Source: an uncultured archaeon (lineage in GTDB: Archaea > Asgardarchaeota > Thorarchaeia > Thorarchaeales > Thorarchaeaceae). From it: a stretch of 64,000 nt of DNA. Positions within the stretch are counted from its first letter, which is position 1; each line of letters opens with the position of its first letter. Below the pieces are notes generated by a model. The model was not told the origin of the DNA and did not search any database. It was given only the letters and a program-made list of their open reading frames with translations. Positions 5,101-35,178 of this stretch are shown one piece after another. The stretch lies in assembly GCA_964458565.1 (NCBI GenBank), contig CAYWJO010000005.1, forward strand, positions 20,375 through 84,374, given 5' to 3'. The position numbers and the translations under genes are program-made.

Positions 5101-5228
5101 ATGTGATATTCATCCTAGAGATTTCATGAATTAGATATACGATTTCGCCACCTCTTCTTCTAATTACTAGTTCATATAATCGATTGTATCAATTGTAATA
5201 CACTTGTTGGTTCCGTAGAACCACTCAT

Positions 5229-15965: not shown

Positions 15966-16128
15966 GATATCACTTTGAGGTATGTTGATAAAGATTACCG
16001 AGTAGACATACTAGTAGGAAGTTGCTGAGGGAATCATAATCTGTTGTATTACGATTATTACTTAAGTAAGGAGAACCTCAAAGCAATCCTTAAAACAATT
16101 GAAACAAATTGAACGTTAGGGTGCGAAG

Positions 16129-17348: not shown

Positions 17349-18194
17349 GTGAGTGACATGAGATATCGTGAATTCCTTAGGAAGAGTTTGGAATCAAATA
17401 TTTCTGATACTTCATTGTTACCTTCTGGTTTTCATTTCGTAGGACATGTTGCTCTATTACATCTAAAAAAAGAAATCATGAAGTATGCCGAAATTATTGG
17501 TCAGCTAACATTGGAATTTGATAAGCGAATCAAATCGGTTGCTGTAAGGTCTGGACCTACAATAGGAGTAAAACGACTACCTAGTTATTCATTAGTTGCT
17601 GGAGATAAAAAGACTGAAACGATTCATATTGAAAACGGTATTCGATTCAAGCTTGATCCGTTGAATGTGACATTTTCTGGGGGAAATAAAGAAGAAAGAA
17701 TACGGATGCCTTCCAGAATAAAGACGGGTGAAGTAATAGTAGATATGTTTGCTTGTGTTGGTCAGTTTGCACTTCATTTGGCAAAGAAGAAGACTGCAAA
17801 AGTATATGCAATTGAACTCAATTCTATTGCCTATGACTATCTATTAGAAAATATTACTTTGAATCATTTGGATAATTATGTACAGGCAATCAATGGTGAT
17901 TGTAGAGAAGTATACCCACGTGCTATTGCAGATAGAATTGTGATGGGATATCTTCATGATACTTTGTCGTATTTTCCTTATGCATTGAAGTCATTGAAGA
18001 AGTGTGGGGGTTTTGTGCATATGCATCTTGCAGGATTAGAGAAAGATATACCTAATTATTGTAATACAATTAATACTATTTGCAATTCTGAAGGATTCAA
18101 TGTGATTTCTGATGAAACAAGAAAGATAAAGCACTACTCGCCGCGCATTGATCATTTCGTATTTGATATTGAAGTTCAGTCAGCCATTCAATAA
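17349..18194 (+). CDS. Trm5/Taw2-family SAM-dependent tRNA transferase
   Basis: HIENGIRFKLD, FSGGNKEER, VDMFACVGQF and ADRIVMGY. Confidence 0.88.
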   Translation: MSDMRYREFLRKSLESNISDTSLLPSGFHFVGHVALLHLKKEIMKYAEIIGQLTLEFDKRIKSVAVRSGPTIGVKRLPSYSLVAGDKKTETIHIENGIRFKLDPLNVTFSGGNKEERIRMPSRIKTGEVIVDMFACVGQFALHLAKKKTAKVYAIELNSIAYDYLLENITLNHLDNYVQAINGDCREVYPRAIADRIVMGYLHDTLSYFPYALKSLKKCGGFVHMHLAGLEKDIPNYCNTINTICNSEGFNVISDETRKIKHYSPRIDHFVFDIEVQSAIQ

Positions 18195-19698: not shown

Positions 19699-19872
19699 CT
19701 AGTCGAAGGTTCAGCCATTATATTCTCTTGAAAAAGCTTGTGTCTCAAAAATAGATGATTAGGTTCTATGACTTCATGTCACCATACGATTTAAAACGGG
19801 ATAATAGTCTAATAATTGTATTACAAGAACTACTTGTGATACGATAAAGTAACGTGTGGCTGTGATGATTTC

Positions 19873-20847
19873 ATGACAATTGCCATTCATGAGAGTGCAT
19901 TGATACGTCATTTCAATACTAGAAAAGAAACGCTGCGAGCTTGGGAAGAAAAAATCGGTGCGAGGTTTTCTCCATTCAGAGGATATAAAATGCCGGATAG
20001 TCGTTTGTATTGCGAACATCCTGATTTTCTTGATAGTATTGTTGACCTAATAATAACAAATGAGAGACATATTTTCCTTAGGGGTCCAGTAGGATCTGGA
20101 AAGAGTACTTTGATGCTTCTTGCACTTCGGGACCTGCCTACATTAGCTGATCGGCGAGGAAATAAGTTTGTTACAGGATATGTTGGGATGACCGGTCTCT
20201 ATGAGAAACAAATGTCTGCTGCCATTGCAGATTCCTTGAGAATCAAATATCGTCGATCATGGGAGTCTAGTCAAATTATAGAAGCTGTTGCACAAGAAAG
20301 TCTTAGGAGATACGTCGAAGAGAAGAGTCGTACGGCACTCTTCATCGAAGATGTTGCTGACAATCAAGAAGCTGCATTTCACAAACTACGGTATCTTGCT
20401 GATTTACCAACTGAAGAAATGATTGATAGTCATGGTCGAATATTGGATGAACCAATAGTCACACTGATTATGAGTGGAACTACAATGTATTGGAACGCTA
20501 TGCTTAGTTTTCTACCACAGATTGCAGATCGAACTGAGCCTCTGGATGTACCGCCCTTTGACCTTTTGAAAGCAAAGGAGTTCATAGGACGCCGACTCTA
20601 TTATGCGCGTGGTAAAATTGATAGTTTCGACTCTGATAATTATGAATTGTATCCATTTCATGACGAAGCTGTAGAGATAATCAATAATTCTGCAGAAGGG
20701 AATCCACGAGACATTCGAATGTTGGCAAGAGGATGCCAACAAGTTGCAGCTGAGAACTTCAAGAGATCTGGATTTCCAGAAATTACAGCAGAAATATCTA
20801 AACTGGTTGCTGATGCTTATGCCACATTACTGAAGGAGGTTAAATAA
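19873..20847 (+). CDS. AAA+ ATPase (ExeA/TniB/initiator-like, not ParA)
   Basis: N-terminal SPF, Walker A GPVGSGKS, Walker B ALFIED, sensor-1 IMSGT, IADR and GNPRDI lid. Confidence 0.8.
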   Translation: MTIAIHESALIRHFNTRKETLRAWEEKIGARFSPFRGYKMPDSRLYCEHPDFLDSIVDLIITNERHIFLRGPVGSGKSTLMLLALRDLPTLADRRGNKFVTGYVGMTGLYEKQMSAAIADSLRIKYRRSWESSQIIEAVAQESLRRYVEEKSRTALFIEDVADNQEAAFHKLRYLADLPTEEMIDSHGRILDEPIVTLIMSGTTMYWNAMLSFLPQIADRTEPLDVPPFDLLKAKEFIGRRLYYARGKIDSFDSDNYELYPFHDEAVEIINNSAEGNPRDIRMLARGCQQVAAENFKRSGFPEITAEISKLVADAYATLLKEVK

Positions 20848-20848
20848 T

Positions 20849-21148
20849 ATGAGCTTGCTAGGGAAATATAGACGCGAAGAAAGAGATAGGGATGAAGAAG
20901 AGGAGGGTACGACATCTCAAAGTGACTCACAGCCTAAACCAGAACGTACTCAAACCCTTGTTGCAGTTCCTAATAAAGAACGAAAGAGTCCAATAATGAG
21001 TTTCTCAGTTGCTTCAGATCTAAGACTGTGTTTGCAGGCAATTAGAAACAAACGTGCAATTAATCTAAGCATGTGGGTTGAAAGAGTCTTGCGAGAGGCA
21101 GTTATACAGGAATTTCCAAATATTGCAGAAGATCTTCTTGAATCCTAG
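20849..21148 (+). CDS. Ribbon-helix-helix DNA-binding protein with a disordered N-terminal tail
   Basis: Charged, flexible N-terminus, then IMSFSV strand, SDLRLCLQAI helix and INLSMWVERVLRE helix; starts 1 nt after the ATPase stop with a GGAGG RBS. Confidence 0.7.
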   Translation: MSLLGKYRREERDRDEEEEGTTSQSDSQPKPERTQTLVAVPNKERKSPIMSFSVASDLRLCLQAIRNKRAINLSMWVERVLREAVIQEFPNIAEDLLES

Positions 21149-21163
21149 GATGTAATACATTTA

Positions 21164-22567
21164 TTACAAATCAGAGTTTCCTCTGGATTGAAGAAATTCG
21201 GAATATTCTGCAGTTTTAGACATACAGAGAGCTGCAATATACGGGTCATCATAGCAAGGGATACGGTTCATCTCCAGCAGATCCTTACCAGGTTTACCTA
21301 CTTCACCAGCAAGCCATACTCCTACAACTGGTTTATTGACTCCTGAAGTACGAATACCTTCAAGTGTCCCAGCTGCATGTTCAGTCTGGGTCATTCCAGC
21401 AAACGTTGGAACTCCACATATTACTAACAACATGTCAACATTTTCGTCCTTGAGAAGGAGTTCTGTAGCAATTTTATATTCCCTACGACCACCACTGGCA
21501 ACTACATCGATTGGGTTTTCGACAGCAGCCATTGAAGGTAATAGTTGTCGAAGTTCTTTAGTTGTGTTTTCATTTAGTCGAGATATTTTTAGATCAAAAT
21601 CGGAGGCAGCATCCGCAGCAAGTACGCCAGCACCACCTGTATTACTTATAATACCAATATTACGACCACTCGGTAAAGGTTGATAATCGAATAGCTTACA
21701 TATTTCAAGTAGTGAATCAAATGTAGGAGCTGTAACACATCTAGTTTGTTGAATAACTCCATTGAACACCTCAATAGAACCTGCGAGAGATCCGGTATGT
21801 GATTTCGTTGCGCGACTACCAGCACTACTTCGACCTCCCTTTAGAACCACAACTGGTTTTCTTGATGTAGCATTCTTTAGTGATTTGAAGAATGCTCGTC
21901 CGTGATCGACACCCTCAACATAAACTGCAATGACAGAGGATTTTTCATCAATGGCGAAGTAGTCAATAATATCGGAAAAGTTTACATCCACTGCGTTTCC
22001 AATACTAGCGAACTTGCTTATGCCAATACGTTTTGCTCGAGTGTTATAGATAGTCATACCACCAAGAGCGCCGCTCTGGGAAACAAATGCGATGTTTCCA
22101 CGTTCAGGCATCATAGTAAATGTTCCATTGAATAAGCGGCTGTTTGAAACCCCTACACAATTAGGTCCAATTATTCGTACTCCATACTCTTTAGCTATTT
22201 GCAATAATTGAGCTTCAAGCTGAGATCCGTGTACCCCAGTTTCACTAAATCCTCCGGATACGATGATTGCATTTCTTGCTCCAGCTTTGTGAATTTGGGG
22301 AATCAAATCTATACAATATTTAGCTGCTACTGCTACTATTACGAGATCAACAGAAGAAGGTAGCTCCTGTAGGCTCGGATACGCTTTCACACCCATTACT
22401 TGGTCTCTGTTCCGTGTGATTGGATAGACTTCAATCTCAGATGTAAGTAGATTCATCAAAATTGAATTGCCGAGTTTTCTATAGTCTGAAGATGCACCAA
22501 CTAAGGCAATACTTTTCGGATTGAAGAAGAGGTCGATAGTTGCCTCATCATTCAATGAGTTAGACAT
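21164..22567 (-). CDS. acdA: ADP-forming acetate/acyl-CoA ligase alpha subunit
   Basis: PKSIALVGAS, RIIGPNCVG, SQSGALG, SHTGSLAG and NPIDV. Confidence 0.9.
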   Translation of the reverse strand: MSNSLNDEATIDLFFNPKSIALVGASSDYRKLGNSILMNLLTSEIEVYPITRNRDQVMGVKAYPSLQELPSSVDLVIVAVAAKYCIDLIPQIHKAGARNAIIVSGGFSETGVHGSQLEAQLLQIAKEYGVRIIGPNCVGVSNSRLFNGTFTMMPERGNIAFVSQSGALGGMTIYNTRAKRIGISKFASIGNAVDVNFSDIIDYFAIDEKSSVIAVYVEGVDHGRAFFKSLKNATSRKPVVVLKGGRSSAGSRATKSHTGSLAGSIEVFNGVIQQTRCVTAPTFDSLLEICKLFDYQPLPSGRNIGIISNTGGAGVLAADAASDFDLKISRLNENTTKELRQLLPSMAAVENPIDVVASGGRREYKIATELLLKDENVDMLLVICGVPTFAGMTQTEHAAGTLEGIRTSGVNKPVVGVWLAGEVGKPGKDLLEMNRIPCYDDPYIAALCMSKTAEYSEFLQSRGNSDL

Positions 22568-22624
22568 GATTGAATGGCAAATCTATACGAATTTATGTCT
22601 ACCTAGATATGCATGTTACTTGTA

Positions 22625-23881
22625 TTATTTGTAATACATTTCGGTGTTACTCTTCTTGGCTAATTTGCGATATAATTTCTTCAGTTGTGCATAGTTTGTG
22701 CAATTGAGTTGAAGATAATCTTTGATGGCATATTCGAATTGCGGATTTCGTTTATGGATATTTTCGATAGCTTCTATTGCTGCATTTACAATTTCTTTGT
22801 TTCTTTTATTACAAATGAGCTCGATGAGTGTTTCAACAGATGCTATATGATAAAAATTACCAAGCGCGGATATAGATGGTGTGACTATTCGAGGATTGTC
22901 TGTATTAATTATGGATTGGAGTAAAATAATAGATTTCAGTGATCTTATTGAAACCAGATTATCAATATGTTTGACAAGTAATCTGAATTTCTCTGCTGTT
23001 TGGTCTGCATTGTATTCATCGAGTATGCATTCTAATAATATACTGAAGTAAGAAACCGCATGTCGGCTGCCGAGGTCACGAAGATTAGAGATATCACCAG
23101 CAATCATGGATGTTAACAGATTATGATATAACGGATGATGAGGATTCTTGATCTTGTGTATGGCTTTGGCTGATTTGGATATAATTTGATTCTTTATTGT
23201 ATCTGATACGGGTATTACAGATAATACCATCTCCATTTCCTGTTCATCAATCAATAATTTAGTCAAGTCTAGTTTTGATAATGCATGCAATCCGTATTCG
23301 GAATGCCATAAGCCTTCAACTGATACTATTTGATTATCTAAAAGAACAGCTGCTCCAATTAATTCTTCTTTACGGATATGTTCTATTTGAATATGCATTT
23401 CTTTTGGAATTATCAATGAGCTTTCAGTGACATCTAAAAAAAATGTATCATGATTAGTAATTTGATCACGAAGAACTGGTAAGATATATTCTAGTAAAGA
23501 GTTCGCTGAATCCGTAAATGATGTCTTAGATTCAAGGAATCCAAGAATATCTTGGGTGGAAATATTAGTTGGTTCGAGTCCCTTACAACCTAGAACTTCA
23601 AATAATACTTCGCGATATTTGATAGGTTCGATTTTTTTCTTTGGAGCATCTATTCCAATTGGGTATGAATAATGAGCATCTAATGATTTCTTAAGATAAT
23701 TTACAGTTGAGTTCCAACCGACTGTTTGGTCAAGTGTCACTAATATATCTTGAAAATCTTCACATCTCCGGTCGCCAATTGATTGAACGATATCAAGAAT
23801 TATATCTCTATCAGTTGCTTCTTGAATTCTCTGTTTGAGAGCTGTAAGAATCCTTGATTTTCCATTATTTTTATCATCCAC
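22625..23881 (-). CDS. Hypothetical protein with C-terminal HEAT-like repeats
   Basis: PSISALGNF...VETLIELI...AAIEAIENI. Confidence 0.6.
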   Translation of the reverse strand: MDDKNNGKSRILTALKQRIQEATDRDIILDIVQSIGDRRCEDFQDILVTLDQTVGWNSTVNYLKKSLDAHYSYPIGIDAPKKKIEPIKYREVLFEVLGCKGLEPTNISTQDILGFLESKTSFTDSANSLLEYILPVLRDQITNHDTFFLDVTESSLIIPKEMHIQIEHIRKEELIGAAVLLDNQIVSVEGLWHSEYGLHALSKLDLTKLLIDEQEMEMVLSVIPVSDTIKNQIISKSAKAIHKIKNPHHPLYHNLLTSMIAGDISNLRDLGSRHAVSYFSILLECILDEYNADQTAEKFRLLVKHIDNLVSIRSLKSIILLQSIINTDNPRIVTPSISALGNFYHIASVETLIELICNKRNKEIVNAAIEAIENIHKRNPQFEYAIKDYLQLNCTNYAQLKKLYRKLAKKSNTEMYYK

Positions 23882-24060
23882 TTTATGACACCCAACTAGA
23901 TACTGAATGAGTAGATTGGATTTTAATGAGTCTATTTACAATCTATGATACTATTACTTGTAATACAATTATTAGTATCTTACCTAATAATGTTTCAATT
24001 ACTCAAAGAAACTTCGTTCTAAGAATAGAACTATGTATAGATTGTGTCTTAGTAAATATG

Positions 24061-24243
24061 AGTATGTTGTGTCATACTGGACCCGTCTGGAATCGAAGTT
24101 CGTTATACGGAGAACTTCAAATGTCCACATTGGCATCTCTATCTCCTCGAAAAAACCTCAAAGATGATCGAATGTAGGTACGCAGACGGGAAGGATTCCT
24201 ATGGATTCCTCAAAGTTGGCGCAACATGCTCGAGCCGTTTTTT
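24061..24243. ncRNA. Candidate structured non-coding element
   Basis: CCCGTCTG/CAGACGGG closes arms GAAGTTC/GAACTTC and ACATT-CATCT/AGATG-AATGT; further hairpins and a T-run follow. Confidence 0.4.
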
Positions 24244-24284
24244 CTTATTCATCCCTATTATCCCCTTTATCTTCTGATTTTAGT

Positions 24285-24818
24285 CTAAGATTTTTGTTTT
24301 GCAATCTCTCCCTTGAGAACTAATGGAGAATCAAGCTCTTCAAGAAGAGACAGGATGAGACGCTCTGCTGATTGGTAGCTCTCAACATCCTCACTAGTTA
24401 ATTCTATCTTTCCAGATAGTATCTCTCTAATTCTACGATACCCACCTATTCTTGAAGCAATCTCCTCAAATGGACGAAAAACAGCTAAATCAAAGAGACC
24501 TAGGTATGCAAGTAGAAGAAGTGTGTAAATTGATTTGGTAATGTTGGTACGAGCTTGTTTCAATGTTCGATTAAAGGAGCCCCTGGATACTCCTTTCTTT
24601 TTGGTTCCTTTGTGACCACGAAGAGAAGCTTTTGTTTCATATGCAATATGCTCATCTACACCATCCTCTAGTACTAGGTCAATAAGTAGTGTTTCAATTT
24701 GTGTTTCAGTCAGTGTTGATCTTCCAAGTAAAATTTGAAGTATCGGTTCTTTCATAACCCTACGAGCATTGATGATTAATTTCTCCATACCATCTTTCTT
24801 CCTTTTATTTGTAGACAT
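24285..24818 (-). CDS. Conserved archaeal hypothetical protein, possibly HTH DNA-binding
   Basis: STLTETQIETL...VSRGSFNRTLKQAR..I.KSIYTLLLLAYLG. Confidence 0.65.
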   Translation of the reverse strand: MSTNKRKKDGMEKLIINARRVMKEPILQILLGRSTLTETQIETLLIDLVLEDGVDEHIAYETKASLRGHKGTKKKGVSRGSFNRTLKQARTNITKSIYTLLLLAYLGLFDLAVFRPFEEIASRIGGYRRIREILSGKIELTSEDVESYQSAERLILSLLEELDSPLVLKGEIAKQKS

Positions 24819-25014
24819 TCATTCTTTCATCCTTGAAATGTGAGTTCTTGTGGAGTGTAAGTAATATAGCCTCATATTCCTTCTTTTTACCTTTCAGGAA
24901 TTATGAAGTTTTTTTGAAACACTACTAATCTGTGTTCTTCTACGGATACAAAAGTGTATACGTAAAGACTATTATGTGCTTCGTGAAAAATAGATAGTAA
25001 TATTTGTAATACAA

Positions 25015-25458
25015 TCAAGCATTAAAAGTATCATTCAAGCTACTTCTGATTGGAAGTTTCCATTCTGAACCAGGAGGTACACTAACAAAGCCTAATATTA
25101 GATTACCACGGATCTCATCATATTTGAATATACCAAAGATGAATCGTTCATTTTTTGCAGCCCATTCAATTCTACCAAGAGCAAGATAGTGATTGAAAAC
25201 ATCTCTACACTGTTTTCGCACTGTGGCAAACAAATTTCGAAATCGTTTCCTTTGTGATGGTCGTATATCCCAACGTTCCAGAATGAATCGATTTGCCAGA
25301 CTATTGCTAGAAATCAATATTGATCTACGTCTCTCATTTGGTGCGTTTATTGCCCTTTCAAGAGTCTGTCTTAAACAATTAGGTACCGTAGCTAAGACGG
25401 AAGGACTTGTCTTTGGTTCATAAACTGTTGACCCTGATAATACGTCGAATCGTCTCAA
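25015..25458 (-). CDS. Hypothetical basic protein
   Basis: 147-aa Arg-rich ORF filling the gap between neighbours. Confidence 0.55.
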   Translation of the reverse strand: MRRFDVLSGSTVYEPKTSPSVLATVPNCLRQTLERAINAPNERRRSILISSNSLANRFILERWDIRPSQRKRFRNLFATVRKQCRDVFNHYLALGRIEWAAKNERFIFGIFKYDEIRGNLILGFVSVPPGSEWKLPIRSSLNDTFNA

Positions 25459-25615
25459 TTCCCATCGATATTCTGTATGGATGGACCTTTAAGAGGTACT
25501 ATAAATGTTTGATAACCATTGTATTACATATATTATTTCTAATAATGGAATAGTTGTACTACTTCACTGCATTAATATCGGAAACAAGTCCCTTCATGGA
25601 AAGGAGAATTACTCT

Positions 25616-27952
25616 TTGATCACCAAGGCAACGATTCATATTACTGGAATTGTACAAGGAGTAGGATTCAGACCTTTCATCTATCGTGAAGCAATATTAT
25701 TGAAGCTAACAGGTTATGTATTAAATCTCGGTGATGCGGGTGTTAGAATAGTAGTTGAAGGGGAGAAATCAAGAATTAATAAGTTAATTGAGATAATAAA
25801 AGCTAAACCCCCATCCATTTCACGCATAGATTCGGTTTCTATAAGCTGGGATGAATCAGAAGGCAAATTTGATACATTCCTCATCTCTAAGTCTTCACCT
25901 ATCAGAGAGAATGGAGCTGTCACTGAGATTCCACCGGATATTGCAATTTGTGATGATTGTGTTGAAGATTTGTTTTCTCCAAAATCTCGTTGGTATTTGT
26001 ATCCATTCACCTCATGTGCAGCATGTGGACCTAGGTTCTCTACAATAACAGATTTACCTTATGACAGACCAAATACGACAATGACAGATTTTCCTCTTTG
26101 TAATATATGTAATACAGGTTATACAAATCCTTTTGATAGAAGATATCATGCACAGACAACTGCATGTTTTACATGTGGACCTGAATACAAGTTAATGAAT
26201 AATGATGGAGAAATTATAGAAACAGAGGATGTTGTACTTACATCAACAAAACTTCTCAAAGAGAGGTCTATAATTGCAGTTCAAGGAATTGCTGGAACTC
26301 ATCTTGTAACAATTACTTCACAACCGGATCCAATTTTAGAGCTCCGTAGAAGAAAGAGACGAGACAAACGACCATTCGCAGTTATGGTCAAAGACCTATT
26401 AGCAACCTATCAAATTTCAAAACCAACAGATTTTGAAACACAGCTAATTACTTCATGGCGAAGACCAATAGTCTTGATTAGAAAGAAGTATAATTCGAAT
26501 GCAAATTTCGAACATGAGTTGATATCTCCGGGTTTGGATACCATAGGAGTCATGTTACCCTATGCACCTATCCATCATCTGTTTTTCAATCATCTTGATG
26601 AAATTGCACTATTGATGACAAGTGCTAATCCAACTGGGTTACCGATGTTTATAGAACCAAAAACCATAATATCAAAACTACAATCAGTTGCAGATTACTT
26701 TCTCATTCATAATAGAAGGATACATCAAAGAGCTGATGATTCAGTATTAAAAATCGTACATGAAGACAATCCCGTTTTTCTTCGTAGGGCACGTGGATAT
26801 GTTCCCGATCCACTGAAAGTCAAAAGTCCTAATGACAAAATTACAATTCTGGGTCTTGGACCTGAAGAGAAAGTTACAGGTGCCATTTTGAAATCGGATT
26901 ATATTTATCAAACTCAACACATTGGAGATGCTGATTGTTTAGAAACTGCTGAATTTCTCTTGGACGCTTCTATTCATCTGATGGATTTAGTGGGAGTATC
27001 CAATCTTGATGCGATTGCTTGTGATTTGCATCCTGAATTTATTACAACAAAACTTGGTAGAAAAATAGCAGATGATAGAGATATTCCTCTGATTAGGGTT
27101 CAGCATCATCATGCACATCTTGCATCTTTAATGGGTGAACATAGAATTGATAATAATACTAGTATTACTTGTATTACAGTCGATGGTTTTGGATATGGTG
27201 ATGATGGTACTGCATGGGGAGGTGAAATTCTAACAGGGAATCTATCTGAATACACAAAGAAAGGCGGCATAAAACCTGTGATACTTCCAGGTGGAGATAT
27301 GACAGCTAGATATGCTTCTAGGTCTCTCTTTGGACTGCTTAGATCTGGGATGACTACTTCGGATATTCATAAGATATTGAAAGGACATAATGTTGCACTT
27401 AGACAGCCAGCTAGTATTGAGAATCTATTATTTCTAGAGGAATCAATTAAGAAAGGAATCAATACCATGACAAGCTCTAGCGCGGGCAGGTTTCTTGATG
27501 CAGTATCTTTAGCTCTTGGAGTATGTTCAGAAAATTCCTATGATGGAGAATGTCCAATGAAGCTTGAGTCAATTGCAAAAGAAAGCGATTCAAACGTGAA
27601 GATTGAATATAGTATTGAAAGGAATTTGAGTTTCATTGATACTTCTAAATTCTTGAGAGAATTATTAGAATTAAAGAATAATGGAATGCCGAAGAAATAT
27701 ATCGCATATATTGCACAATGGGAACTTGGATCTGCATTAGCAGAAATTGCATGTGATGTATCTATTAGCGAAGGCATAGAGTATGTTGGTATTTCTGGAG
27801 GAGTTGCTTTGAATCGGATAATTACTTCTGCTGTAATAAAAAAGGTATTAGCTTACAATCTCACACCATTAATACATAGAAATATTCCTCCGGGAGATGG
27901 AGGTATTTCTTCAGGACAGGTTTTGGTAGCATCTGCCAAACTATTAGAATAG
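25616..27952 (+). CDS. hypF: Carbamoyltransferase HypF
   Basis: GIVQGVGFRPF, CxxC Zn fingers, RRARGYVP, QHHHAH and PPGDGGISSGQ; TTG start after GGAG. Confidence 0.96.
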   Translation: MITKATIHITGIVQGVGFRPFIYREAILLKLTGYVLNLGDAGVRIVVEGEKSRINKLIEIIKAKPPSISRIDSVSISWDESEGKFDTFLISKSSPIRENGAVTEIPPDIAICDDCVEDLFSPKSRWYLYPFTSCAACGPRFSTITDLPYDRPNTTMTDFPLCNICNTGYTNPFDRRYHAQTTACFTCGPEYKLMNNDGEIIETEDVVLTSTKLLKERSIIAVQGIAGTHLVTITSQPDPILELRRRKRRDKRPFAVMVKDLLATYQISKPTDFETQLITSWRRPIVLIRKKYNSNANFEHELISPGLDTIGVMLPYAPIHHLFFNHLDEIALLMTSANPTGLPMFIEPKTIISKLQSVADYFLIHNRRIHQRADDSVLKIVHEDNPVFLRRARGYVPDPLKVKSPNDKITILGLGPEEKVTGAILKSDYIYQTQHIGDADCLETAEFLLDASIHLMDLVGVSNLDAIACDLHPEFITTKLGRKIADDRDIPLIRVQHHHAHLASLMGEHRIDNNTSITCITVDGFGYGDDGTAWGGEILTGNLSEYTKKGGIKPVILPGGDMTARYASRSLFGLLRSGMTTSDIHKILKGHNVALRQPASIENLLFLEESIKKGINTMTSSSAGRFLDAVSLALGVCSENSYDGECPMKLESIAKESDSNVKIEYSIERNLSFIDTSKFLRELLELKNNGMPKKYIAYIAQWELGSALAEIACDVSISEGIEYVGISGGVALNRIITSAVIKKVLAYNLTPLIHRNIPPGDGGISSGQVLVASAKLLE

Positions 27953-27977
27953 CAATTGTAATATATGTAATACAATA

Positions 27978-28592
27978 TCATGTAAGTAGTTTTTGGATAG
28001 CTTGGAATCCAAGCTCAACTGCAGTGATATTGATTGTTTCAAATTTGCTAGAGAAAGACATACGAACAGCAGCTAATACTGATTCTTTCTTGATTGGGGT
28101 GAGGTTAGTACCTAATATTGCTCCTAGCATGACCATATTCATTGAACGAGAACTTCCGGCTTCCTTAGCAAGCTCCATTGCATCAATTTCCAGAATCTTA
28201 TCTGTGAATCTCCTAATTTGAGATATGATTTCTCCATGATCAGGATATTCTGTTTGGCCCATGGATACAGCTACAGGGTATTGAATATGTGAACTCATGA
28301 CAACATATCCATCATTACTAACTGCATGAATTTCCCTCAGAGTTTCAAGGGGTTCGAATCCAACAATGAGATTAGCTGTTCCCGAATCAATTATTGGTCC
28401 ATACACATTTTCACCAATACGTACTGTACATACAACATGACCGCCTCTTTGAGCCATCCCATGAATCTCACCTACTCGTACGTTTAAATTGTCCGCTAGT
28501 GCAGCCTTTGCCAAAATTTCTGCAAGTGTTAGTACTCCCTGACCACCAACACCAGCAATGAGAATATCGCTATTATTTGTATTACAATTCAT
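27978..28592 (-). CDS. iorB: Indolepyruvate:ferredoxin oxidoreductase beta subunit
   Basis: AGVGGQG, EIHGMAQRGGHV and NMVMLGA; GGAGG RBS before the ATG at 28592. Confidence 0.93.
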   Translation of the reverse strand: MNCNTNNSDILIAGVGGQGVLTLAEILAKAALADNLNVRVGEIHGMAQRGGHVVCTVRIGENVYGPIIDSGTANLIVGFEPLETLREIHAVSNDGYVVMSSHIQYPVAVSMGQTEYPDHGEIISQIRRFTDKILEIDAMELAKEAGSSRSMNMVMLGAILGTNLTPIKKESVLAAVRMSFSSKFETINITAVELGFQAIQKLLT

Positions 28593-28594
28593 AT

Positions 28595-30484
28595 TTATTC
28601 CTCCTGTCTTATTGCACCTTGTGGACATACTGATACACATGTACCACATAGATTACACAGAGTTTCGTCAATTACTGCTTTTTCTGTTAAAGAATCAAAA
28701 TACATAGCTGGACAAGAGAGACGATTCAGGCAGCGTTTACATGAGTTACATGTTTCAGAATCCACATAATATCGTGGAGGGAATTCGCCAGTACGACGCC
28801 TATCGGCAGCTGTCAGTAGAGCACAAGGTGCTTTTGAAACCATGACAGCAGGTTCATTATTTTCGCGGACCCACTTTACCATCTTGCGAACTTCAGCGAC
28901 TAAGTCAGCCATTAGTTCAAAAGGATTCATCTCTATAACATATTTGACCCCTAATCCCTTGCATACTTCTACAATATCAAGAGGCTCTACTTGTTCTTGC
29001 ATTCCAGTGATTCCAGTGCCAGGATGTGGTTGATGTCCAGTCATTGCAGTAGTTCTATTATCTAGGACAACTAATGAAACTGGATGTTTGTTGTATACTG
29101 CGTTTACTATTCCAGGGAGTGCGGATGCGAAGAAGGTACTATCACCAATTGAGGCTACTATATCTTGATTTGTTACACGTGCAAGACCACATGCTGTAGT
29201 AATTGATGATCCCATGTCAAAGAGGATATCTGCAGTTTCAAGAGGTGGTGCAATGCTGAGAGTATAACAACCAATATCTGAGGGATAAATTGCTTTTCCT
29301 CTTGTTGCAGTCTTGATTGCATAATAGGTTGCTCTATGGGGACAACCTGGACATAGAAGTGGTGGTCGAGGAGGAAGTTCTGGAATTTGTTTGAATCTAT
29401 CATCTATATCCTTCCAATTAATAATTGTATTACAATTAATAATATTACAGATAGCTTCAATTACGATTCGTGGACTGTACTCGAAAGTTCGTGGAAATAG
29501 TCCTTGTTCCTTTCCAAATATCTCAATGGACAGACCATTTAATTGTGCAAGTCGCCGAGTGTGTGTTTCTAAGAAAGGTTCGAGCTCTTCGACAATAATG
29601 ATCTTATTGTGGTTTTTCATGAAATTAAGAATCATTTTCTCAGGTATTGGATGAGTAAGACCAAGCTTTAGGATACTTGCATCTAGTTCTAAACAAGATA
29701 ATGCTTCACGAACATAGTTGAAGGATACACCACTGGTAATGATTCCAAGATTACCCTTACCTTCGATGAAATTCATTGATGAAGTTTCTGAAAATTCTCT
29801 TACTTTTTCAATCTGTTTCAAAAGAAGAGGATGACGTTTACGTGCGACAGATGGAATGGGTACAAAACGGAATGGATCTTTTTCAAAGTGTACTGTTTCT
29901 GGGCGATTTCTAATAGGACCAAGTTCGACGGCAGCTCGGGTATGATTGACTCGAGTTGTTGTTCTAAACAAGACTGGAAGTTCAAATTTCTCCGATATCT
30001 CGTATGCTTCTAGAAGTAATGATTTTGCTTCAGCAGGATCTGCAGGTTCTATCATTGGCATATTTCCCATCAGAGCATAATAACGACTATCGTTTTCGTT
30101 TTGTGAGCTCCACATACTTGGATCATCAGCTACGACAATTACCATGCCGGCTCTGACTCCAACATATGACAGTGAGAAGAAAGGATCTGCGGCAACATTG
30201 AGACCAGGTCCTTTACATACCATCATTGATCTAGCACCAGCAACTGCTACAGCTCCTGCTACTTCTAGAGCAACCTTCTCGTTTGTACTAAATTCGAAAT
30301 AGAAATTGGGAATGTGTGGTGCCATAAATGTCAGATTGTTTCCAATTTCACTACTTGGAGTACCTGGATAAAGAGCTACTAGTCTAACTCCAGCTTCCAA
30401 TACGCCTCGTGCGATAGCTTCATTGGCAAGAAGGAGAATGTTCTTTCCAACAGAGTCCTCGAGCAATTCTTTAGGTTTGGTCAA
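28595..30484 (-). CDS. iorA: Indolepyruvate:ferredoxin oxidoreductase alpha subunit
   Basis: YPGTPSSE, NEKVALE, RPPLLCPGCPHR, DIGCY, TAMTGHQ and a C-terminal ferredoxin domain. Confidence 0.95.
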   Translation of the reverse strand: MTKPKELLEDSVGKNILLLANEAIARGVLEAGVRLVALYPGTPSSEIGNNLTFMAPHIPNFYFEFSTNEKVALEVAGAVAVAGARSMMVCKGPGLNVAADPFFSLSYVGVRAGMVIVVADDPSMWSSQNENDSRYYALMGNMPMIEPADPAEAKSLLLEAYEISEKFELPVLFRTTTRVNHTRAAVELGPIRNRPETVHFEKDPFRFVPIPSVARKRHPLLLKQIEKVREFSETSSMNFIEGKGNLGIITSGVSFNYVREALSCLELDASILKLGLTHPIPEKMILNFMKNHNKIIIVEELEPFLETHTRRLAQLNGLSIEIFGKEQGLFPRTFEYSPRIVIEAICNIINCNTIINWKDIDDRFKQIPELPPRPPLLCPGCPHRATYYAIKTATRGKAIYPSDIGCYTLSIAPPLETADILFDMGSSITTACGLARVTNQDIVASIGDSTFFASALPGIVNAVYNKHPVSLVVLDNRTTAMTGHQPHPGTGITGMQEQVEPLDIVEVCKGLGVKYVIEMNPFELMADLVAEVRKMVKWVRENNEPAVMVSKAPCALLTAADRRRTGEFPPRYYVDSETCNSCKRCLNRLSCPAMYFDSLTEKAVIDETLCNLCGTCVSVCPQGAIRQEE

Positions 30485-30595
30485 TCCTGAACCTCCGTAG
30501 ACCTTTAGTCTACATCTTGTGTTTTGACAATCCATAATAGGTATCAGTCTTACGGTAGGAGCTAAGAGCACTTTGTAATACTCGTATTATATTTT

Positions 30596-30983
30596 GAACA
30601 CGTGTTCCAAGTTTTTCTTGGACAAGACCCCCATATTTCCACTCGAATATTAATGGGAAGACAGAATATAAAATAACCAAAAGTATATATAATGTTTTTA
30701 GCAGCCTATATTTATCTACATTTTTATCTACTATATATGATCGCCAAATCTTCTACATTTTCATCTATGTTCCAATGGAAATTAAGGGGTGTCACAGTTT
30801 TCAAGTACTACTAACCTTTATTTCCTCTGTTTCTTATGGAACATATGGAAACGATTGTTAACCTCCTATATAGGGACTTTGCAACAAACTTAATCCATCT
30901 TTCATAGCAGATAATGAATTAGAACACGTGTTCTAGAACCCCCTTATTTCCTATGGAAGTATATATTGGAACACATGTTCCAA
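30596..30983. other. Putative replication origin (ORB cluster with AT-rich segments)
   Basis: ORB-like elements: 30628-30647(-) TTCGAGTGGAAATATGGGGG, 30769-30789(+) GTTCCAATGGAAATTAAGGGG and 30939-30958(-) TTCCATAGGAAATAAGGGGG. Confidence 0.75.
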
Positions 30984-30985
30984 AT

Positions 30986-31270
30986 TCATACTTCATTTAC
31001 AGTAAAAATCTTTGTTTTCAAAATATCAGTATACGATTCGAATAAATCATCAAAAATCGATCTACAATCAGGTGGAACGAGTATTGCTGAATCTGCAACC
31101 GCTTCAGCACCCACACATTCATCCAATAGTCCAACCTTTCTCTTTTCTTTAAGTCCTGTTCTTGTCTTCCAGGAATATGTGAATCCATAGAGCTCCTTTG
31201 TGAATGCAACTCGTCTTGCATTACTCTTTCGAGCATTTTTGCAATCATAGATATAGAGAATCTTTCCCAA
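30986..31270 (-). CDS. Small protein with a possible Cas2/VapD-like ferredoxin fold
   Basis: ILYIYD N-terminal strand, F.KELYG, GLL and SAILVP; GGTG RBS. Confidence 0.55.
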   Translation of the reverse strand: MGKILYIYDCKNARKSNARRVAFTKELYGFTYSWKTRTGLKEKRKVGLLDECVGAEAVADSAILVPPDCRSIFDDLFESYTDILKTKIFTVNEV

Positions 31271-31408
31271 TAACTACACCTAATCACTAGAACACATGTT
31301 CTCAATTTTAGTCCGAGTAACACAAATCCAGATAGAAAGGTTAAAGCGTAGGTGACTCGCGAGTCGGTCTCACTGCAAGGAGCAGCTGGATTCATAGGTG
31401 GAATAGCG

Positions 31409-32719
31409 GTGAATAAGATAGGTTTGCGTAAAGAGGAAAAAGCCTTCGAAGGTAGGGTTCCTGTGGTACCAGAACATATGAAACAGCTTACCGAAAAATA
31501 TGGTCTTCGTTTTGTTATCGAGCCAAGTAATCAACGGGCATTTTCCTCTGAGGAATACATAAAAATCAATGCGGAAATTGATTCCCTTGAGAGTCCCGAT
31601 ATTCGTGTGATATTAGGAATAAAGGAGATGCCCATAGATTTCTTTCAGAAAGATAAGGTATACATTTTCTTCAGTCATACTATCAAAGGCCAAAAACAAA
31701 ACATGCCAATACTTCAGAAAATTATTGATGTCGGAGCTACTCTACTAGACTATGAGCGTGTTATCGATAATAATGGAAGACGAATAATATTCTTTGGAAA
31801 TTGGGCAGGAATGGCAGGTATATCTGACACACTTCGTGTTCTTGGAGATCGCTTGGAATATGATGAAGTAACTCCAAATCCCTTTGCTGAGATGAAAACA
31901 ACACTTGAGTGCAAAACCCTTGAAACCCTTAAAGATGAATTTCGCAAATTAGGTAGAAGAATAGAAACTACTGGTTTTCCTGAATCTCTTACCCCATTTG
32001 TAGTAGGTTTTGCAGGATATGGTAATGTTTCAAGAGGCGCCCAAGAAGTATTTGATCTCTTACCTCATATTGAAATGAATCCTTCTCAACTCGAAAATCT
32101 GAAACCTGACCCACATGTCATATACAAGTGTGTATTCAAAGAGAGCGATATGGTAGAGCCTATTGACGCAGAGATAGATTTCGATTTACAGGATTATTAT
32201 AATCATGGAGCATCAAAATACAAAGGAATATTCAACAAGTACATTCCATATCTCACTGTCCTGATGAACTGTATTTACTGGACTAAGAAATATCCTCGCC
32301 TTGTAACAAAAGAATATATCAAAAAGCATTGGTCCGAACCAAATAGACGATTGATTGCAATTGGTGATATCTCTTGTGATGTTGGCGGTGCTATCGAATT
32401 TACTGTAAGATGTACATCTGCCGGTGAACCTGCATTTACCTATTCGATAAAAGACGACCAAGCAATTCTAGGAGTCAGAGGCGATGGTCCAATTATCATG
32501 GCTGTAGATAATTTACCTTGTGAATTACCTAGAGAATCATCTACTTCCTTTAGTAAAACATTAGTGGATTTTATTCCAATATTAGCTAATGCGAATTATA
32601 ATCTACCATTTGCGGAGTTGAATCTGCCACGCGAGCTAAAAGATGCAATAATTGTGTATCAAGGAACTCTAACAGAGAATTACCAGTATCTAAAAAAACA
32701 TCTTGAAGAAGGTCAATAA
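31409..32719 (+). CDS. Lysine-ketoglutarate reductase / saccharopine dehydrogenase (AlaDh-PNT-like)
   Basis: FFSHTIKGQ, LLDYE, GYGNVSRGA, NCIYW, DISCD and MAVDNLPCELP; ORF is open from 31352. Confidence 0.9.
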   Translation: MNKIGLRKEEKAFEGRVPVVPEHMKQLTEKYGLRFVIEPSNQRAFSSEEYIKINAEIDSLESPDIRVILGIKEMPIDFFQKDKVYIFFSHTIKGQKQNMPILQKIIDVGATLLDYERVIDNNGRRIIFFGNWAGMAGISDTLRVLGDRLEYDEVTPNPFAEMKTTLECKTLETLKDEFRKLGRRIETTGFPESLTPFVVGFAGYGNVSRGAQEVFDLLPHIEMNPSQLENLKPDPHVIYKCVFKESDMVEPIDAEIDFDLQDYYNHGASKYKGIFNKYIPYLTVLMNCIYWTKKYPRLVTKEYIKKHWSEPNRRLIAIGDISCDVGGAIEFTVRCTSAGEPAFTYSIKDDQAILGVRGDGPIIMAVDNLPCELPRESSTSFSKTLVDFIPILANANYNLPFAELNLPRELKDAIIVYQGTLTENYQYLKKHLEEGQ

Positions 32720-32721
32720 TA

Positions 32722-34038
32722 ATGAAGACTGTACTTTGTCTTGGGGCCGGTCTCGTCGCTCGGCCGTATGTACAATATCTATGTAACAAAGGTTTCCATG
32801 TTATGGTTGCCAGTCGAACAAAAACAAAGGCTAAATCACTCATAGAGGGATGCAAAAGCGCAGAGGCTGTCGAATTCAATATAAAAACGGATATTCAGCT
32901 ATTGGATGAGTTAATTGCGGAGGCAGACTTAGTATGTTCTCTTTTACCCTATACTTATCATGTCAATGCTGCAAAGATAGCTATAAAGCACAAGAAGCCT
33001 TTCTGTACGACCTCATATATCTCACAAGAAATGATGGCTCTAGATGAGGAGGCAAAAAAAGCAGGTATAATTCTTCTGAACGAATGCGGTGTAGATCCAG
33101 GTATAGACCACATGAGTGCAATGAAGATAATTGATGACGTTCATAGTAATGGTGGAAAGATAATCAGTTTTACATCTTTTACTGGAGGACTTCCTGCTCC
33201 AGATGCTAACAACAATCCTTTTGGTTACAAGCTATCTTGGAGTCCAAGAGGAGTTCTTCTTGCAGGTAGAAATGATGCTCATTTTCTTCGAGATGGAAAG
33301 GACGTCAAAATACCTGGTCCAGACCTCTTTGATAATTACGAAATAATGGATGTCCCAGGAATAGGACAATTTGAAGGTTACCCAAATCGCGATAGTATGG
33401 CTTTCATTGAATACTATGGAATTCCCGAAACTAAAACAATGCTAAGAGGAACTCTCAGAAATATTGGTTGGTGTAAGACGCTCAAGACTATTGCTGATCT
33501 TGGTATATTAGATTTGGAAGAACGTTCTTTCGATGGAATGACATATTCAGATATGATAAAGGAACTTGTTTCTGCAGATTCCAATGATGTAATCGAAGCA
33601 GTATCTTTGTATACAGGTCTCGACAAAAATAATCCGATAATAGAACGGTTAGAATGGCTTGGTCTATTTTCCGATGTACTTATCCCCTCTGCTCTAAATA
33701 CAAGACTTGATTCTTTATGCCATCTATTCGAGGAAAAATTACAATATGCCTCAGATGAACGTGATATGATAGTTATGCATCATGAGTTTATTGCTGAATA
33801 TTCCGACAAGAAGGAAAAAATCACTTCAACATTGATAGACTATGGTATTCCAAATGGCGACAGTTCGATGTCAAGAACAGTAGCTCTCCCAGTTGCTATT
33901 GCGAGTAGATTAATCCTTGAGGGAAATATCTCTATGAATGGAGTTTATCGTCCAGTATTACCTGACATATATAATCCCATTCTCAGAGAGCTTGACCAAC
34001 TAGGTATAAGTCTAGAAGAAAATGTAATACCACTATGA
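32722..34038 (+). CDS. Saccharopine dehydrogenase (NADP, glutamate-forming)
   Basis: LGAGLVARP, NECGVDPGIDHM, GGLPAP, YKLSWSPRGV, YPNRDS and MSRTVALP. Confidence 0.93.
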   Translation: MKTVLCLGAGLVARPYVQYLCNKGFHVMVASRTKTKAKSLIEGCKSAEAVEFNIKTDIQLLDELIAEADLVCSLLPYTYHVNAAKIAIKHKKPFCTTSYISQEMMALDEEAKKAGIILLNECGVDPGIDHMSAMKIIDDVHSNGGKIISFTSFTGGLPAPDANNNPFGYKLSWSPRGVLLAGRNDAHFLRDGKDVKIPGPDLFDNYEIMDVPGIGQFEGYPNRDSMAFIEYYGIPETKTMLRGTLRNIGWCKTLKTIADLGILDLEERSFDGMTYSDMIKELVSADSNDVIEAVSLYTGLDKNNPIIERLEWLGLFSDVLIPSALNTRLDSLCHLFEEKLQYASDERDMIVMHHEFIAEYSDKKEKITSTLIDYGIPNGDSSMSRTVALPVAIASRLILEGNISMNGVYRPVLPDIYNPILRELDQLGISLEENVIPL

Positions 34039-34073
34039 ATTGAAACTGATATATGAGGACCTAATCAGAGTCC

Positions 34074-34715: not shown

Positions 34716-34740
34716 CTAGTTTCAATGTTTACTAAGATGT

Positions 34741-35178
34741 TTATTCACATCTACCTATTCTCACATCTAAATAAGTGTGAGTATGTGAATTACTAATACC
34801 TAGATAAGAACTACATAATGTGTCTGTAAGCCCTAGAGACACACCTAATCCATTTCACTTGTGATAAGCCGCATAGAACACTAATATCAAATTAATAAGG
34901 CCTATTAGAGCTCTAAATCAAAAAATAATACCTTTTTCCTTCTTTATCACTATTCACAAAATTATATGGTTTGTGAATAGCATGATACGCATATCATAAG
35001 TCTTTTTGCTTAGTTCCAATGGAAACGAAGGGGTGTCGCTATTCACATAGGCTAGCAAATCTATAGTATCTTCTTTCCCGTCAAAAAGCAGATTATAAAC
35101 TTCTTTTTAATAATCGATTCACAATTATGGCGCCATTCACTTCCTAAATATGTGAACTATTGTCAACAACGTGAATAG
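34741..35178. repeat. (CT)ATTCAC iteron-like repeats around a single ORB
   Basis: About 8-10 ATTCAC/GTGAAT copies, including a perfect 11-bp inverted pair at 34950-34960/34970-34980; ORB GTTCCAATGGAAACGAAGGGG at 35013-35033. Confidence 0.75.

Follow-up and report, generated by a model that had tools for sequence, protein, structure and literature searches.

Several ribbon-helix-helix (RHH) proteins form cooperative arrays on short boxes, strong and weak, that follow one another head to tail, as on the metboxes of MetJ (8 bp), the heptads of omega (7 bp) and the iterons of ParG/ParR. Bacterial parS sites are palindromic, many of them are intragenic, and they lie around the gene of their binding protein. 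They cluster around oriC (PMC13722703), and the same source describes HpaB of Haloferax, a small, disordered RHH centromere-binding protein that pairs with ParA. In the Sulfolobales, the disordered N-terminus of SegB stimulates SegA (PMC8682754), 83.7% of SegB sites are intragenic (PMC12284271), and the RHH regulator aCcr1 has as its box the 9-bp palindrome A(T/G)G(A)TA(G)A(T/G)TACN (PMC9976878). Here we describe a locus in 64,000 nucleotides of the genome of an uncultured Asgard archaeon of the Thorarchaeota (positions 20375–84374 of contig C5 of genome G000; 3.73 Mb, 93 contigs, 40.9% GC), the whole of which is called the window below. In it, copies of the palindromic core TGTAWTACA with degenerate neighbours in a 9-bp register extend from an operon of an AAA_22-type P-loop ATPase and a 99-aa RHH-like protein to a predicted replication origin. 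We interpret this arrangement, with confidence evenly divided for and against, as a phased array of RHH iterons that is centromere-like, has an AAA_22-type partner and lies beside a predicted oriC.

The locus resembles SegAB in that a small RHH gene comes after the gene of a nucleoside triphosphatase (NTPase), with SegB as the top (weak) fold match of its product. As described for SegB (PMC8682754), the RHH protein has a predicted disordered N-terminus, palindromic sites lie just upstream of the operon, and several dimers would bind per site. Many further sites lie beyond the operon, those of SegB being mostly intragenic (PMC12284271). The differences concern the partner, which is AAA_22-type and not ParA/Walker-type, the box, which is 9 bp long in a 9-bp register as opposed to the 13-bp TCTAGA-S-TCTAGA, and the distribution, a single 11-kb array ending at origin recognition boxes (ORBs) compared to approximately 46–49 sites reported as scattered over the chromosome; no sequence similarity of the 99-aa protein to SegB was detected. 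The ATPase is not a deviant Walker A ATPase of the ParA/MinD family; its profile matches were AAA_22, AAA_16, NB-ARC and ORC-CDC6-like, with no ParA-family profile among them. The module was therefore not assigned to SegAB or ParABS, and it may work like a ParA/SegA-type partition system though not a member of the family.

With bacterial ParABS the locus shares multiple palindromic sites, clustered within kilobases of the binder gene and near the origin. ParB, however, is a helix-turn-helix (HTH) protein and a CTP-dependent sliding clamp that spreads from few sites, and its ATPase belongs to a different class; a non-spreading binder of RHH type would account for the large number of specific sites along the region. 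The tandem-box RHH operators (MetJ, omega, ParG/ParR) likewise have short palindromic boxes in tandem below the helical turn. Here the period is 9 bp (13 bp in a sister clade), with two to four boxes per unit and approximately 16 units over 11 kb. The box of the aCcr1/CdrS regulators is also a 9-bp palindrome of similar sequence, but aCcr1 lacks a partner ATPase, and the promoters that carry its boxes, that of cdvA among them, are dispersed, whereas the extended sites described here are confined to one origin-adjacent locus and half lie off promoters. Like archaeal oriC regions, the intergenic region at 30.6–31.0 kb holds consensus-matching inverted ORBs around AT-rich DNA; unlike them, it is free of TGTAWTACA boxes, which lie outside the ORB region, and in Thorarchaeota it has no adjacent orc1/cdc6. 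The literature searched, with subscription journals and supplements outside its scope, held no published description of the ATPase-RHH module. What appears to be new is the proposed arrangement of phased RHH iterons over kilobases up to a predicted origin, with a non-canonical ATPase as partner.

Box statistics and conservation of the 9-bp register

TGTAWTACA occurred 15 times in the window against 0.66 expected, a count reached by none of 100 dinucleotide-preserving shuffles of the window. Twelve of the 29 cores in the genome lie between 18060 and 29434 (11.4 kb). All 12 had an exact in-phase TAWTA flank at ±9 bp (14 of 24 flanks), compared to none of the 17 genomic cores outside this cluster (0 of 34 flanks). 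Pairs of the form TAWTA-N4-TAWTA (period 9) numbered 42 in the genome; 21 fell in a 16-kb cluster where 0.09 would be expected, and TAWTA pairs at periods of 5–8 and 10–16 occurred there 0–3 times each. The extended box, the 16-mer TAWTANTTGTAWTACA, had 10 matches in the genome, all within the cluster. Cores with one mismatch were 3.5-fold enriched in the cluster (0.875 vs. 0.247 per kb), and four of these (16045, 21638, 23211 and 30574) had in-phase neighbours of their own. In the local logo, positions −7 to −1 read T-A-W-T-A-n-T in 11, 11, 12, 10, 9, – and 9 of the 12 sites, with a fainter mirror image at +9 to +17.

The register was reproduced when sites from 68 loci, fetched around the ATPase gene in related genomes, were pooled with those of the window (426 unique sites). 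TAWTA was present at −9 in 21.4% of the sites (71 times background) and at +9 in 29.3% (98 times), falling to 3.1% (10 times) at −18 and 1.4% at +18, and hardly occurred at ±8 or ±10. Of 425 pooled sites, 201 had one exact flank or more, and the pooled matrix, tGTAwTAnT-TGTAWTACA-AnTAwTACa, is a 27-bp palindrome of three boxes. The first-pass annotation had proposed that the cores sit in tandem degenerate repeats with a 9-bp phase, an idea to be given up if a logo showed no TAWTA above the AT background at ±9 bp; the pooled enrichment clearly speaks for it. The flanks which it quoted, including those at 19808, 21151, 22621, 24996, 27161 and 29417, were all present as written, and the 19-mer TTGTAATATATGTAATACA that it gave as identical at 26098 and 27956 was found at both starts. 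Its remark that the distant copies lack such flanks also stood, except that the copy placed at 62570 starts at 62560; a copy at 5194, which it had not mentioned, is flankless as well.

About half of the boxes are intergenic. Two lie between convergent 3′ ends, four well inside genes, and approximately 5 of the 12 are located 48–190 bp upstream of gene starts (Table 1). The unit at 28569..28586 is probably intergenic too, because the part of the open reading frame (ORF) over it is an N-terminal extension without conservation, to which none of 46 orthologues aligns. Every intragenic box is in frame as Cys-(Asn/Ile)-Thr.

The array is conserved across genera. Of 31 related genomes, 13 contained the extended 16-mer (11 of the 18 from the same family), and its matches nearly always formed one cluster on one contig per relative (one stray match in G005), while the reversed pattern used as control gave 0–1 matches. 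Gene order around it is syntenic: PAN, TYW2, NAC, AtpD, a small membrane protein, the ATPase, the 99-aa protein, acetyl-CoA synthetase (ACS), a HEAT-repeat protein, p177, p147, HypF, IorB and IorA. At least one core was present in 66 of the 68 loci. Thirty-six loci extended over the full ±10 kb; among these the median was 7 cores per locus (range 0–15), 190 of 266 cores lay downstream of the ATPase start, and 35 loci had a core at most 120 bp upstream of it. The complete 2.58-Mb chromosome of another member of the Thorarchaeota (G031) holds eight cores, seven of them within 13 kb. The operator upstream of the ATPase gene follows a three-box consensus, TGTATTACA-AgAAgTACt-TGTGATAC, kept in 60 of 62 related loci as well as in the window; it is located approximately 27 bp downstream of a TTTATA-like element and ends 11–62 bp (mostly 40–56 bp) before the ATG. 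Shufflon or invertase sites, uptake sequences and methylation sites had also been considered for the boxes and were dropped, since the genes are syntenic housekeeping genes in all relatives and the sites are in one locus.

Within HypF, the zinc-finger box (C-x-x-C-N-T) was kept in 45 of 47 orthologues and the box reading Cys-Ile-Thr at 27152..27178 in 46 of 47; an outgroup locus (L068) had neither. The Cys-Asn-Thr box of IorA was intact in 18 of 49 orthologues, the rest mostly having Arg-Asn-Thr, one base off, and that of TYW2 was found at the orthologous position in 9 of 59. Selection appears to act on the box DNA itself, because the HypF boxes are kept at orthologous positions and boxes also occur between convergent gene ends, where no promoter is expected. 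At 26099–26116 the HypF CxxC motif consists of two consecutive boxes, TGT-AAT-ATA-TGT-AAT-ACA, the 9-nt period of CxxC being equal to that of the boxes; most Thorarchaeota HypF proteins have C-D-T-C-N-T at this place, again two boxes.

The RHH-like protein and its putative ATPase partner

In the 99-aa protein, a disordered, acidic linker joins an invariant N-terminal tip, MSLLGKYR (MSLLGKYRK in the window), to a C-terminal domain that is also conserved, SPI(V/M)SFS…INLSMWVE…LREA. Its AlphaFold2 model has an extended segment at residues ~48–55 and helices at 56–69, 73–88 and 90–96, with a predicted local distance difference test (pLDDT) score of 84–91 in the C-terminal part; the predicted order, an N-terminal strand followed by two helices, is that of an RHH domain. 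The predicted homodimer obtained an interface score (ipSAE) of 0.50, compared to 0.00 for the best of three controls, on a mark that was reached by 20 of 30 proteins solved as one-chain pairs and by 1 of 23 solved as single chains. The dimer runs shared at least 93% of their contacts (pLDDT 72–73). The contacts were symmetric, with antiparallel strand pairing (51-51, 50-52, 54-50) and a helix-2 contact (80-80), so that the model predicts the intertwined ribbon of an RHH dimer. When the monomer model was compared with solved structures by a wide VIA-align search, SegB (7duv_A; Z 3.6, root-mean-square deviation 2.1, 48 residues aligned) came first and omega (1irq_B; Z 3.5) second, both weak scores. 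Many RHH antitoxins and repressors were among the top 50 matches, all with Z below 4, and the omega-DNA entry 2bnw was near the top. Foldseek against the PDB gave no match at E values up to 0.001, and sequence searches of Pfam, NCBIfam and PDB sequences returned nothing relevant (a stray PDB match such as PLC-beta).

The ATPase sequence carries the AAA+/AAA_22 hallmarks, namely Walker A, Walker B and, in a C-terminal helical lid, an arginine motif resembling sensor 2. For the window's protein, the Pfam matches to AAA_22, AAA_16 and NB-ARC lay under the curated cut-offs; across the family, AAA_22 matched 14 of 14 members (best E value 6.5e-14), and G74, G76, K77, D160 and R279 (of GNPRD) were invariant in 14 sequences sharing as little as 21% identity. 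Its Atlas neighbours were AAA_22 clusters. Identity across Thorarchaeota loci was 78–85%, and only 21 relatives were found among 1.84 billion representative proteins. The Orc1/Cdc6 profile TIGR02928 did not match over its full length, winged-helix domain included: it gave 13.2 bits (cut-off 181.3) and aligned to the P-loop region alone. A split Orc1/Cdc6, made up of the 324-aa and 99-aa proteins, was considered and rejected on this score and on the 99-aa protein being RHH-like and not a winged-helix protein. In a collection of viral contigs, the 96 pattern matches included none that encodes a relative of the ATPase, and the collection gave no sign of viral origin.

An ATPase gene followed by the gene of a small putative binding protein, with repeated sites at and around the operon, is the layout of a partition cassette. 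We propose that the 9-bp boxes would be iterons of the 99-aa RHH protein encoded within the array, which on the present evidence probably binds them. One dimer would place its two-stranded beta-ribbon in the major groove at the TAWTA centre of the palindromic box (T-GTA-W-TAC-A). A strong palindromic box would nucleate binding, and a second, sometimes a third, dimer would fill the weaker box 9 bp away through dimer-dimer contacts; because neighbouring dimers would fill adjacent boxes, the working unit would be 18–27 bp rather than 9 bp. The operator between the TATA-like element and the ATPase start probably serves to autoregulate the operon. The 11 further strong units and approximately four degenerate ones, 0.5–1.7 kb apart, would tile the 11 kb from the operon to the ORB-bearing predicted oriC, and the loaded array of approximately 16 units would constitute a large nucleoprotein platform near the origin, coupled to the ATPase through the conserved N-terminal tip of the RHH protein. 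Among the functions considered for this platform, we favour a centromere-like complex (segrosome) that would segregate or organise the origin region, a role to which we give slightly less than even weight. Side-by-side binding of dimers, in the manner of RHH centromere-binding proteins, had been suggested by the first-pass annotation; the predicted RHH-like dimer encoded within the array, the NTPase-RHH operon with its operator, the conserved exact 9-bp register and the change of box with RHH clade all lend it support.

The predicted origin and related modules in other Asgard families

Inverted ORB elements flank AT-rich DNA where the array ends, as expected of an oriC (Table 1). They match the archaeal consensus, published as TCCA[CG]T[TG]GAAA[TC][GA]AAGGGGT (PMC4164010) or CTTCCAGTGGAAACGAAAGGGGT (PMC4153887). 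Scanning the genomes with the pattern TTCCANNNGAAAN{3,6}GGGG gave five matches in G000, three of them at 30770–35033 of the window, and only two in G031, 84 bp and 4.3 kb past the last box. G020 likewise had no more than two, inverted to each other, next to orc1/cdc6 and 5.4 kb away from the ATPase; in G142 an inverted pair was located 2.1 kb upstream of the ATPase, with two single matches elsewhere, and G024 had none. The pattern also marks candidate origins in G031, G020, G142 and G009. The boxes themselves were rejected as ORBs, the canonical ORBs being separate elements at 30.6–31.0 and 35.0 kb.

In Thorarchaeota loci, 10.1–10.9 kb separate the ATPase start from the ORB pair downstream, located where the array ends, and in the other families fetched the module is 1–7 kb from ORB pairs. 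The distance from the ATPase to orc1/cdc6 is 2.6–4.2 kb in families f3, f7 and f21; in Thorarchaeota it is 34–80 kb for nearby copies, the other copy in G031 being approximately 1 Mb off. In the window's genome no orc1/cdc6 adjoins the predicted origin: the true genes are located at C5:100,219 and C5:120,478, 49 and 69 kb farther along the contig, and the nearest is 59 kb from the ATPase. The boxes therefore accompany the ATPase-RHH operon, and it is the entire module that is linked to the predicted origin. This linkage to predicted ORB pairs, and in some families to orc1/cdc6, holds across at least six Asgard families.

GC skew was dropped as a marker of origin or terminus, since the five largest contigs were noisy and had no long-range trend. 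Within the window (2001–64000), the skew is positive at 16–28 kb, strongly negative from 34 kb, and turns near the predicted origin. A 12-bp palindrome, GAACACRTGTTC, occurs there in four copies within 705 bp, out of 17 in the genome, and these may be sites for another factor of the origin region or of a promoter.

The ATPase was single-copy in 114 of the 400 genomes of the phylum surveyed. It was found in 77 of 85 genomes of f1, 1 of 1 of f2, 10 of 12 of f20, 5 of 5 of f7, 5 of 6 of f21, 4 of 4 of f3 and 3 of 3 of f31, and a small RHH-like ORF followed it in all six loci inspected from f21, f3, f7 and f20. The box was GTAWTAC in f20, where approximately 10 boxes occur within 3.5 kb, most of them in a 1.1-kb stretch free of ORFs with a GC content of 17–23%. 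Runs of up to six in-phase boxes were seen, and over 39 sites TAWTA occurred at −27, −18, −9, +9, +18 and +27 only (4, 7, 12, 20, 6 and 4 times). Such a stretch could be a compact centromere or an origin-like element. It follows directly after the RHH gene, at ~10940–12000 in locus L115 and ~10910–12000 in L111. In f31, two GTAWTAC boxes 27 bp apart lie upstream of the ATPase. The RHH strand is different in f21 and f7 (NFNVRMPS), and the boxes there are GATATC, with pair distances peaking at 13 bp (11 pairs) and 26 bp; in f21, a 20-kb stretch contained 31 GATATC where 6.8 were expected, and these formed small phased groups that extend across 15 kb or more. No clear box was seen upstream of the ATPase in f3. 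Box sequence and phase thus change with the RHH clade, from GTAWTAC at 9 bp (f1, f20, f31) to GATATC at 13 bp.

An inverted repeat in the f21 locus is a canonical ORB pair, 155 nt apart. The surrounding 3.2 kb of locus L106 (6283–9529; approximately 1,638,780–1,642,030 of contig C1 of G142) have no ORFs of at least 90 aa, lie between the orc1/cdc6 neighbour and the ATPase gene, and hold, besides the ORB pair, several 13-bp-phased groups of GATATC. Rfam searches of four related loci returned tRNAs only; the ORF-poor regions therefore contain no known RNA family.

Among the neighbours, p177 stands out, with homologues beside the ATPase-RHH pair in 11 of 11 loci tested from other families (E values 7e-10 to 6e-29). 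It matches DUF134 weakly (E value 0.1), some of its copies in databases bear the name 'predicted DNA-binding protein (UPF0251 family)', and it is 32–45% identical between families with differing boxes. Nearly all of its 553 database relatives are unnamed. HypF recurs as a conserved neighbour in f1 and f20, and probably in f21. The p147 protein is conserved within Thorarchaeota and has no family match. The 418-aa protein, which matches HEAT repeats weakly, keeps its syntenic place in every Thorarchaeota locus, and at only ~30% identity it evolves much faster than its neighbours (50–85% identical).

Table 1. Features of the array, operon and predicted origin region, by position in the window
Feature	Position	Strand	Sequence and remarks
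Degenerate box unit	16045..16062		TGTATTACG-ATTATTACT
Box unit	18060..18077		Core TGTAATACA + ATTAATACT; within TYW2 gene, read Cys-Asn-Thr
TATA-like element	19789..19796	+	TTTAAAAC; aligned with conserved TTTATA/TTATA in 61 upstream regions; putative promoter element
Operator, four 9-bp boxes in register	19808..19843		TCTAATAAT-TGTATTACA-AGAACTACT-TGTGATACG; ends 30 bp before ATPase ATG
AAA_22-type P-loop ATPase, 324 aa	19873..20847	+	Walker A GPVGSGKST, Walker B LFIEDV, GNPRD arginine motif
RHH-like protein, 99 aa	20849..21148	+	Starts 1 nt after ATPase stop; C-terminal strand-helix-helix domain, residues ~47–97
Box unit	21151..21168		TGTAATACA + TTTATTACA; between convergent 3′ ends of RHH and ACS genes
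Degenerate three-box unit	21638..21664		TGTATTACT-TATAATACC-AATATTACG; within ACS
Box unit	22621..22638		TGTATTATT + core TGTAATACA; 63 bp upstream of ACS start
HEAT-repeat protein, 418 aa	22625..23881	-	Weak matches
Degenerate three-box unit	23202..23228		TCTGATACG-GGTATTACA-GATAATACC; within HEAT-repeat gene
Three-box unit	23950..23976		ACTATTACT-TGTAATACA-ATTATTAGT; 78 bp upstream of HEAT-repeat gene
p177, 177 aa	24285..24818	-	Possible HTH DNA-binding protein; candidate third module component or alternative box binder
Box unit	24996..25013		AGTAATATT + core TGTAATACA; between p177 and p147
p147	25015..25458	-	
Three-box unit	25520..25546		Core + TATATTATT + TCTAATAAT; p147/HypF divergent region
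Two-box unit	26099..26116		TGTAATATA-TGTAATACA; in HypF CxxC zinc-finger codons (C-N-I-C-N-T)
Three-box unit	27152..27178		AATAATACT-AGTATTACT-TGTATTACA; within HypF, Cys-Ile-Thr
Two-box unit	27957..27974		TGTAATATA-TGTAATACA; between convergent HypF and IorB 3′ ends
Box unit	28569..28586		GCTATTATT + core; IorA/IorB junction
Three-box unit	29417..29443		ATTAATAAT-TGTATTACA-ATTAATAAT; within IorA, N-C-N-T
Degenerate box unit	30574..30591		TGTAATACT-CGTATTATA; IorA start, adjoining origin-like region
12-bp palindromes	30596..30607, 30922..30933, 30969..30980, 31290..31301		GAACACRTGTTC
ORB-like element	30628..30646	-	TCGAGTGGAAATATGGGGG; looser match
AT-rich stretch	30655..30769		GC 26%; between ORB-like elements; candidate unwinding element
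ORB element	30770..30789	+	TTCCAATGGAAATTAAGGGG; matches published archaeal consensus
ORB element	30939..30958	-	TTCCATAGGAAATAAGGGGG; inverted relative to 30770
Third ORB element	35014..35033	+	TTCCAATGGAAACGAAGGGG; 4.2 kb away

Competing explanations and what the locus may mean

Origin control in place of segregation is an unlikely explanation, though one that shares much of the evidence: the RHH protein and an ORC-like AAA+ ATPase would act on the adjacent oriC by licensing, sequestering, titration of initiation factors or helicase loading, and the array would be a regulatory or titration field. The inverted ORB pair at the array edge, the proximity of the module to ORB pairs and, in f3, f7 and f21, to orc1/cdc6, the GATATC groups on either side of the ORB pair in the f21 ORF-poor region, the AT-rich, ORF-free stretch filled by the f20 boxes and the weak ORC-CDC6-like and orc1/cdc6 profile matches of the ATPase all fit it. 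However, the Thorarchaeota boxes span 11 kb, conserved intragenic sites included, far wider than described archaeal origins; they track the ATPase-RHH operon and not orc1/cdc6, and the Orc1/Cdc6 profile score is far below its cut-off. A plain local transcription factor is distinctly unlikely. The RHH protein would then autoregulate its operon and repress neighbouring promoters (ACS, the HEAT-repeat gene, p177/p147, HypF, Ior), with the intragenic sites as by-products, which agrees with an operator placed between a TATA-like element and the start codon, a position like that of aCcr1-boxes (PMC9976878), with the boxes found shortly upstream of gene starts, and with HypF as a recurrent neighbour. 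Against this stand the boxes between convergent ends and well inside genes, those of HypF being kept in almost all orthologues, the functionally unrelated neighbouring genes and the absence of any extended site elsewhere in the window's genome: two-box units accompanied 12 of 12 cores in one locus and 0 of 17 elsewhere, a distribution other than the dispersed promoters of aCcr1/CdrS. A regulon confined to 11 kb that ends at ORBs, with a dedicated ATPase partner, would be atypical of a transcription factor.

It is improbable that the boxes are read by another protein, either p177 as a DUF134/UPF0251-like HTH protein or an unlinked RHH protein of the aCcr1/CdrS type, with the 99-aa protein binding elsewhere or serving only as adaptor of the ATPase. 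Although p177 accompanies the module in all families examined and gives a weak HTH-family signal, tandem short palindromic boxes at a period below the helical turn typify RHH proteins (MetJ, omega, Arc, CopG) and not HTH proteins. The RHH protein is also favoured as box reader because box and phase switch with the RHH clade while p177 keeps its degree of identity across families with GTAWTAC and GATATC. The aCcr1-box does resemble GTAWTAC (PMC9976878). An artefact of chance, AT-richness or codon usage is extremely improbable, refuted as it was by the controls: the intragenic boxes do all encode Cys-(Asn/Ile)-Thr in frame, and one pair falls on a CxxC motif with its natural 9-nt period, but the shuffles never reached the observed count, flanks were confined to the cluster, enrichment was restricted to exact multiples of 9, half of the boxes lie between genes, and the feature is conserved across genera and families.

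Several points weigh against a phased RHH array with a centromere-like function. The ATPase, being AAA_22-like, falls outside the three known classes of partition NTPases; PDB searches aligned its P-loop stretch and nothing beyond, and its AlphaFold2 model was poor (pLDDT 58). The RHH assignment leans on fold scores with Z below 4, with neither Pfam nor PDB sequence match, and the dimer result may stem from likeness to solved RHH dimers. The possible HTH protein p177 is an equally conserved neighbour, adjacency to ORB elements fits replication control equally well, and the GC-poor stretch that holds most f20 boxes looks origin-like itself. A review credits Asgard archaea with ParA/ParB homologues (PMC7617429). 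Finally, the module was unseen in many of the families searched (0 of 135 genomes of f9, 0 of 31 of f5, and several others) and would therefore be no general Asgard solution.

The broadest form of the proposal seems rather doubtful to us at present: that several Asgard lineages have a fourth prokaryotic DNA-segregation machine, in which an AAA+ ATPase of AAA_22 type, and not ParA, ParM or TubZ, would be joined by the tail of its RHH adaptor to a centromere of phased iterons that extends over kilobases and adjoins oriC, with the DUF134-like p177 as third component. Asgard archaea are the closest known relatives of eukaryotes, and on their chromosome segregation a review offers only the presence of ParA/ParB homologues (PMC7617429). 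The locus provides a concrete system, comprising a defined 9-bp DNA element, a candidate binder, a near-orphan ATPase and a predicted origin, all within 13 kb, and ORB-based origin predictions were gained for Thorarchaeota and four other families. The two box types, GTAWTAC at 9 bp and GATATC at 13 bp, constitute a natural co-variation usable for specificity swaps. If the ATPase drives segregation, the module could represent a new class of partition machine.

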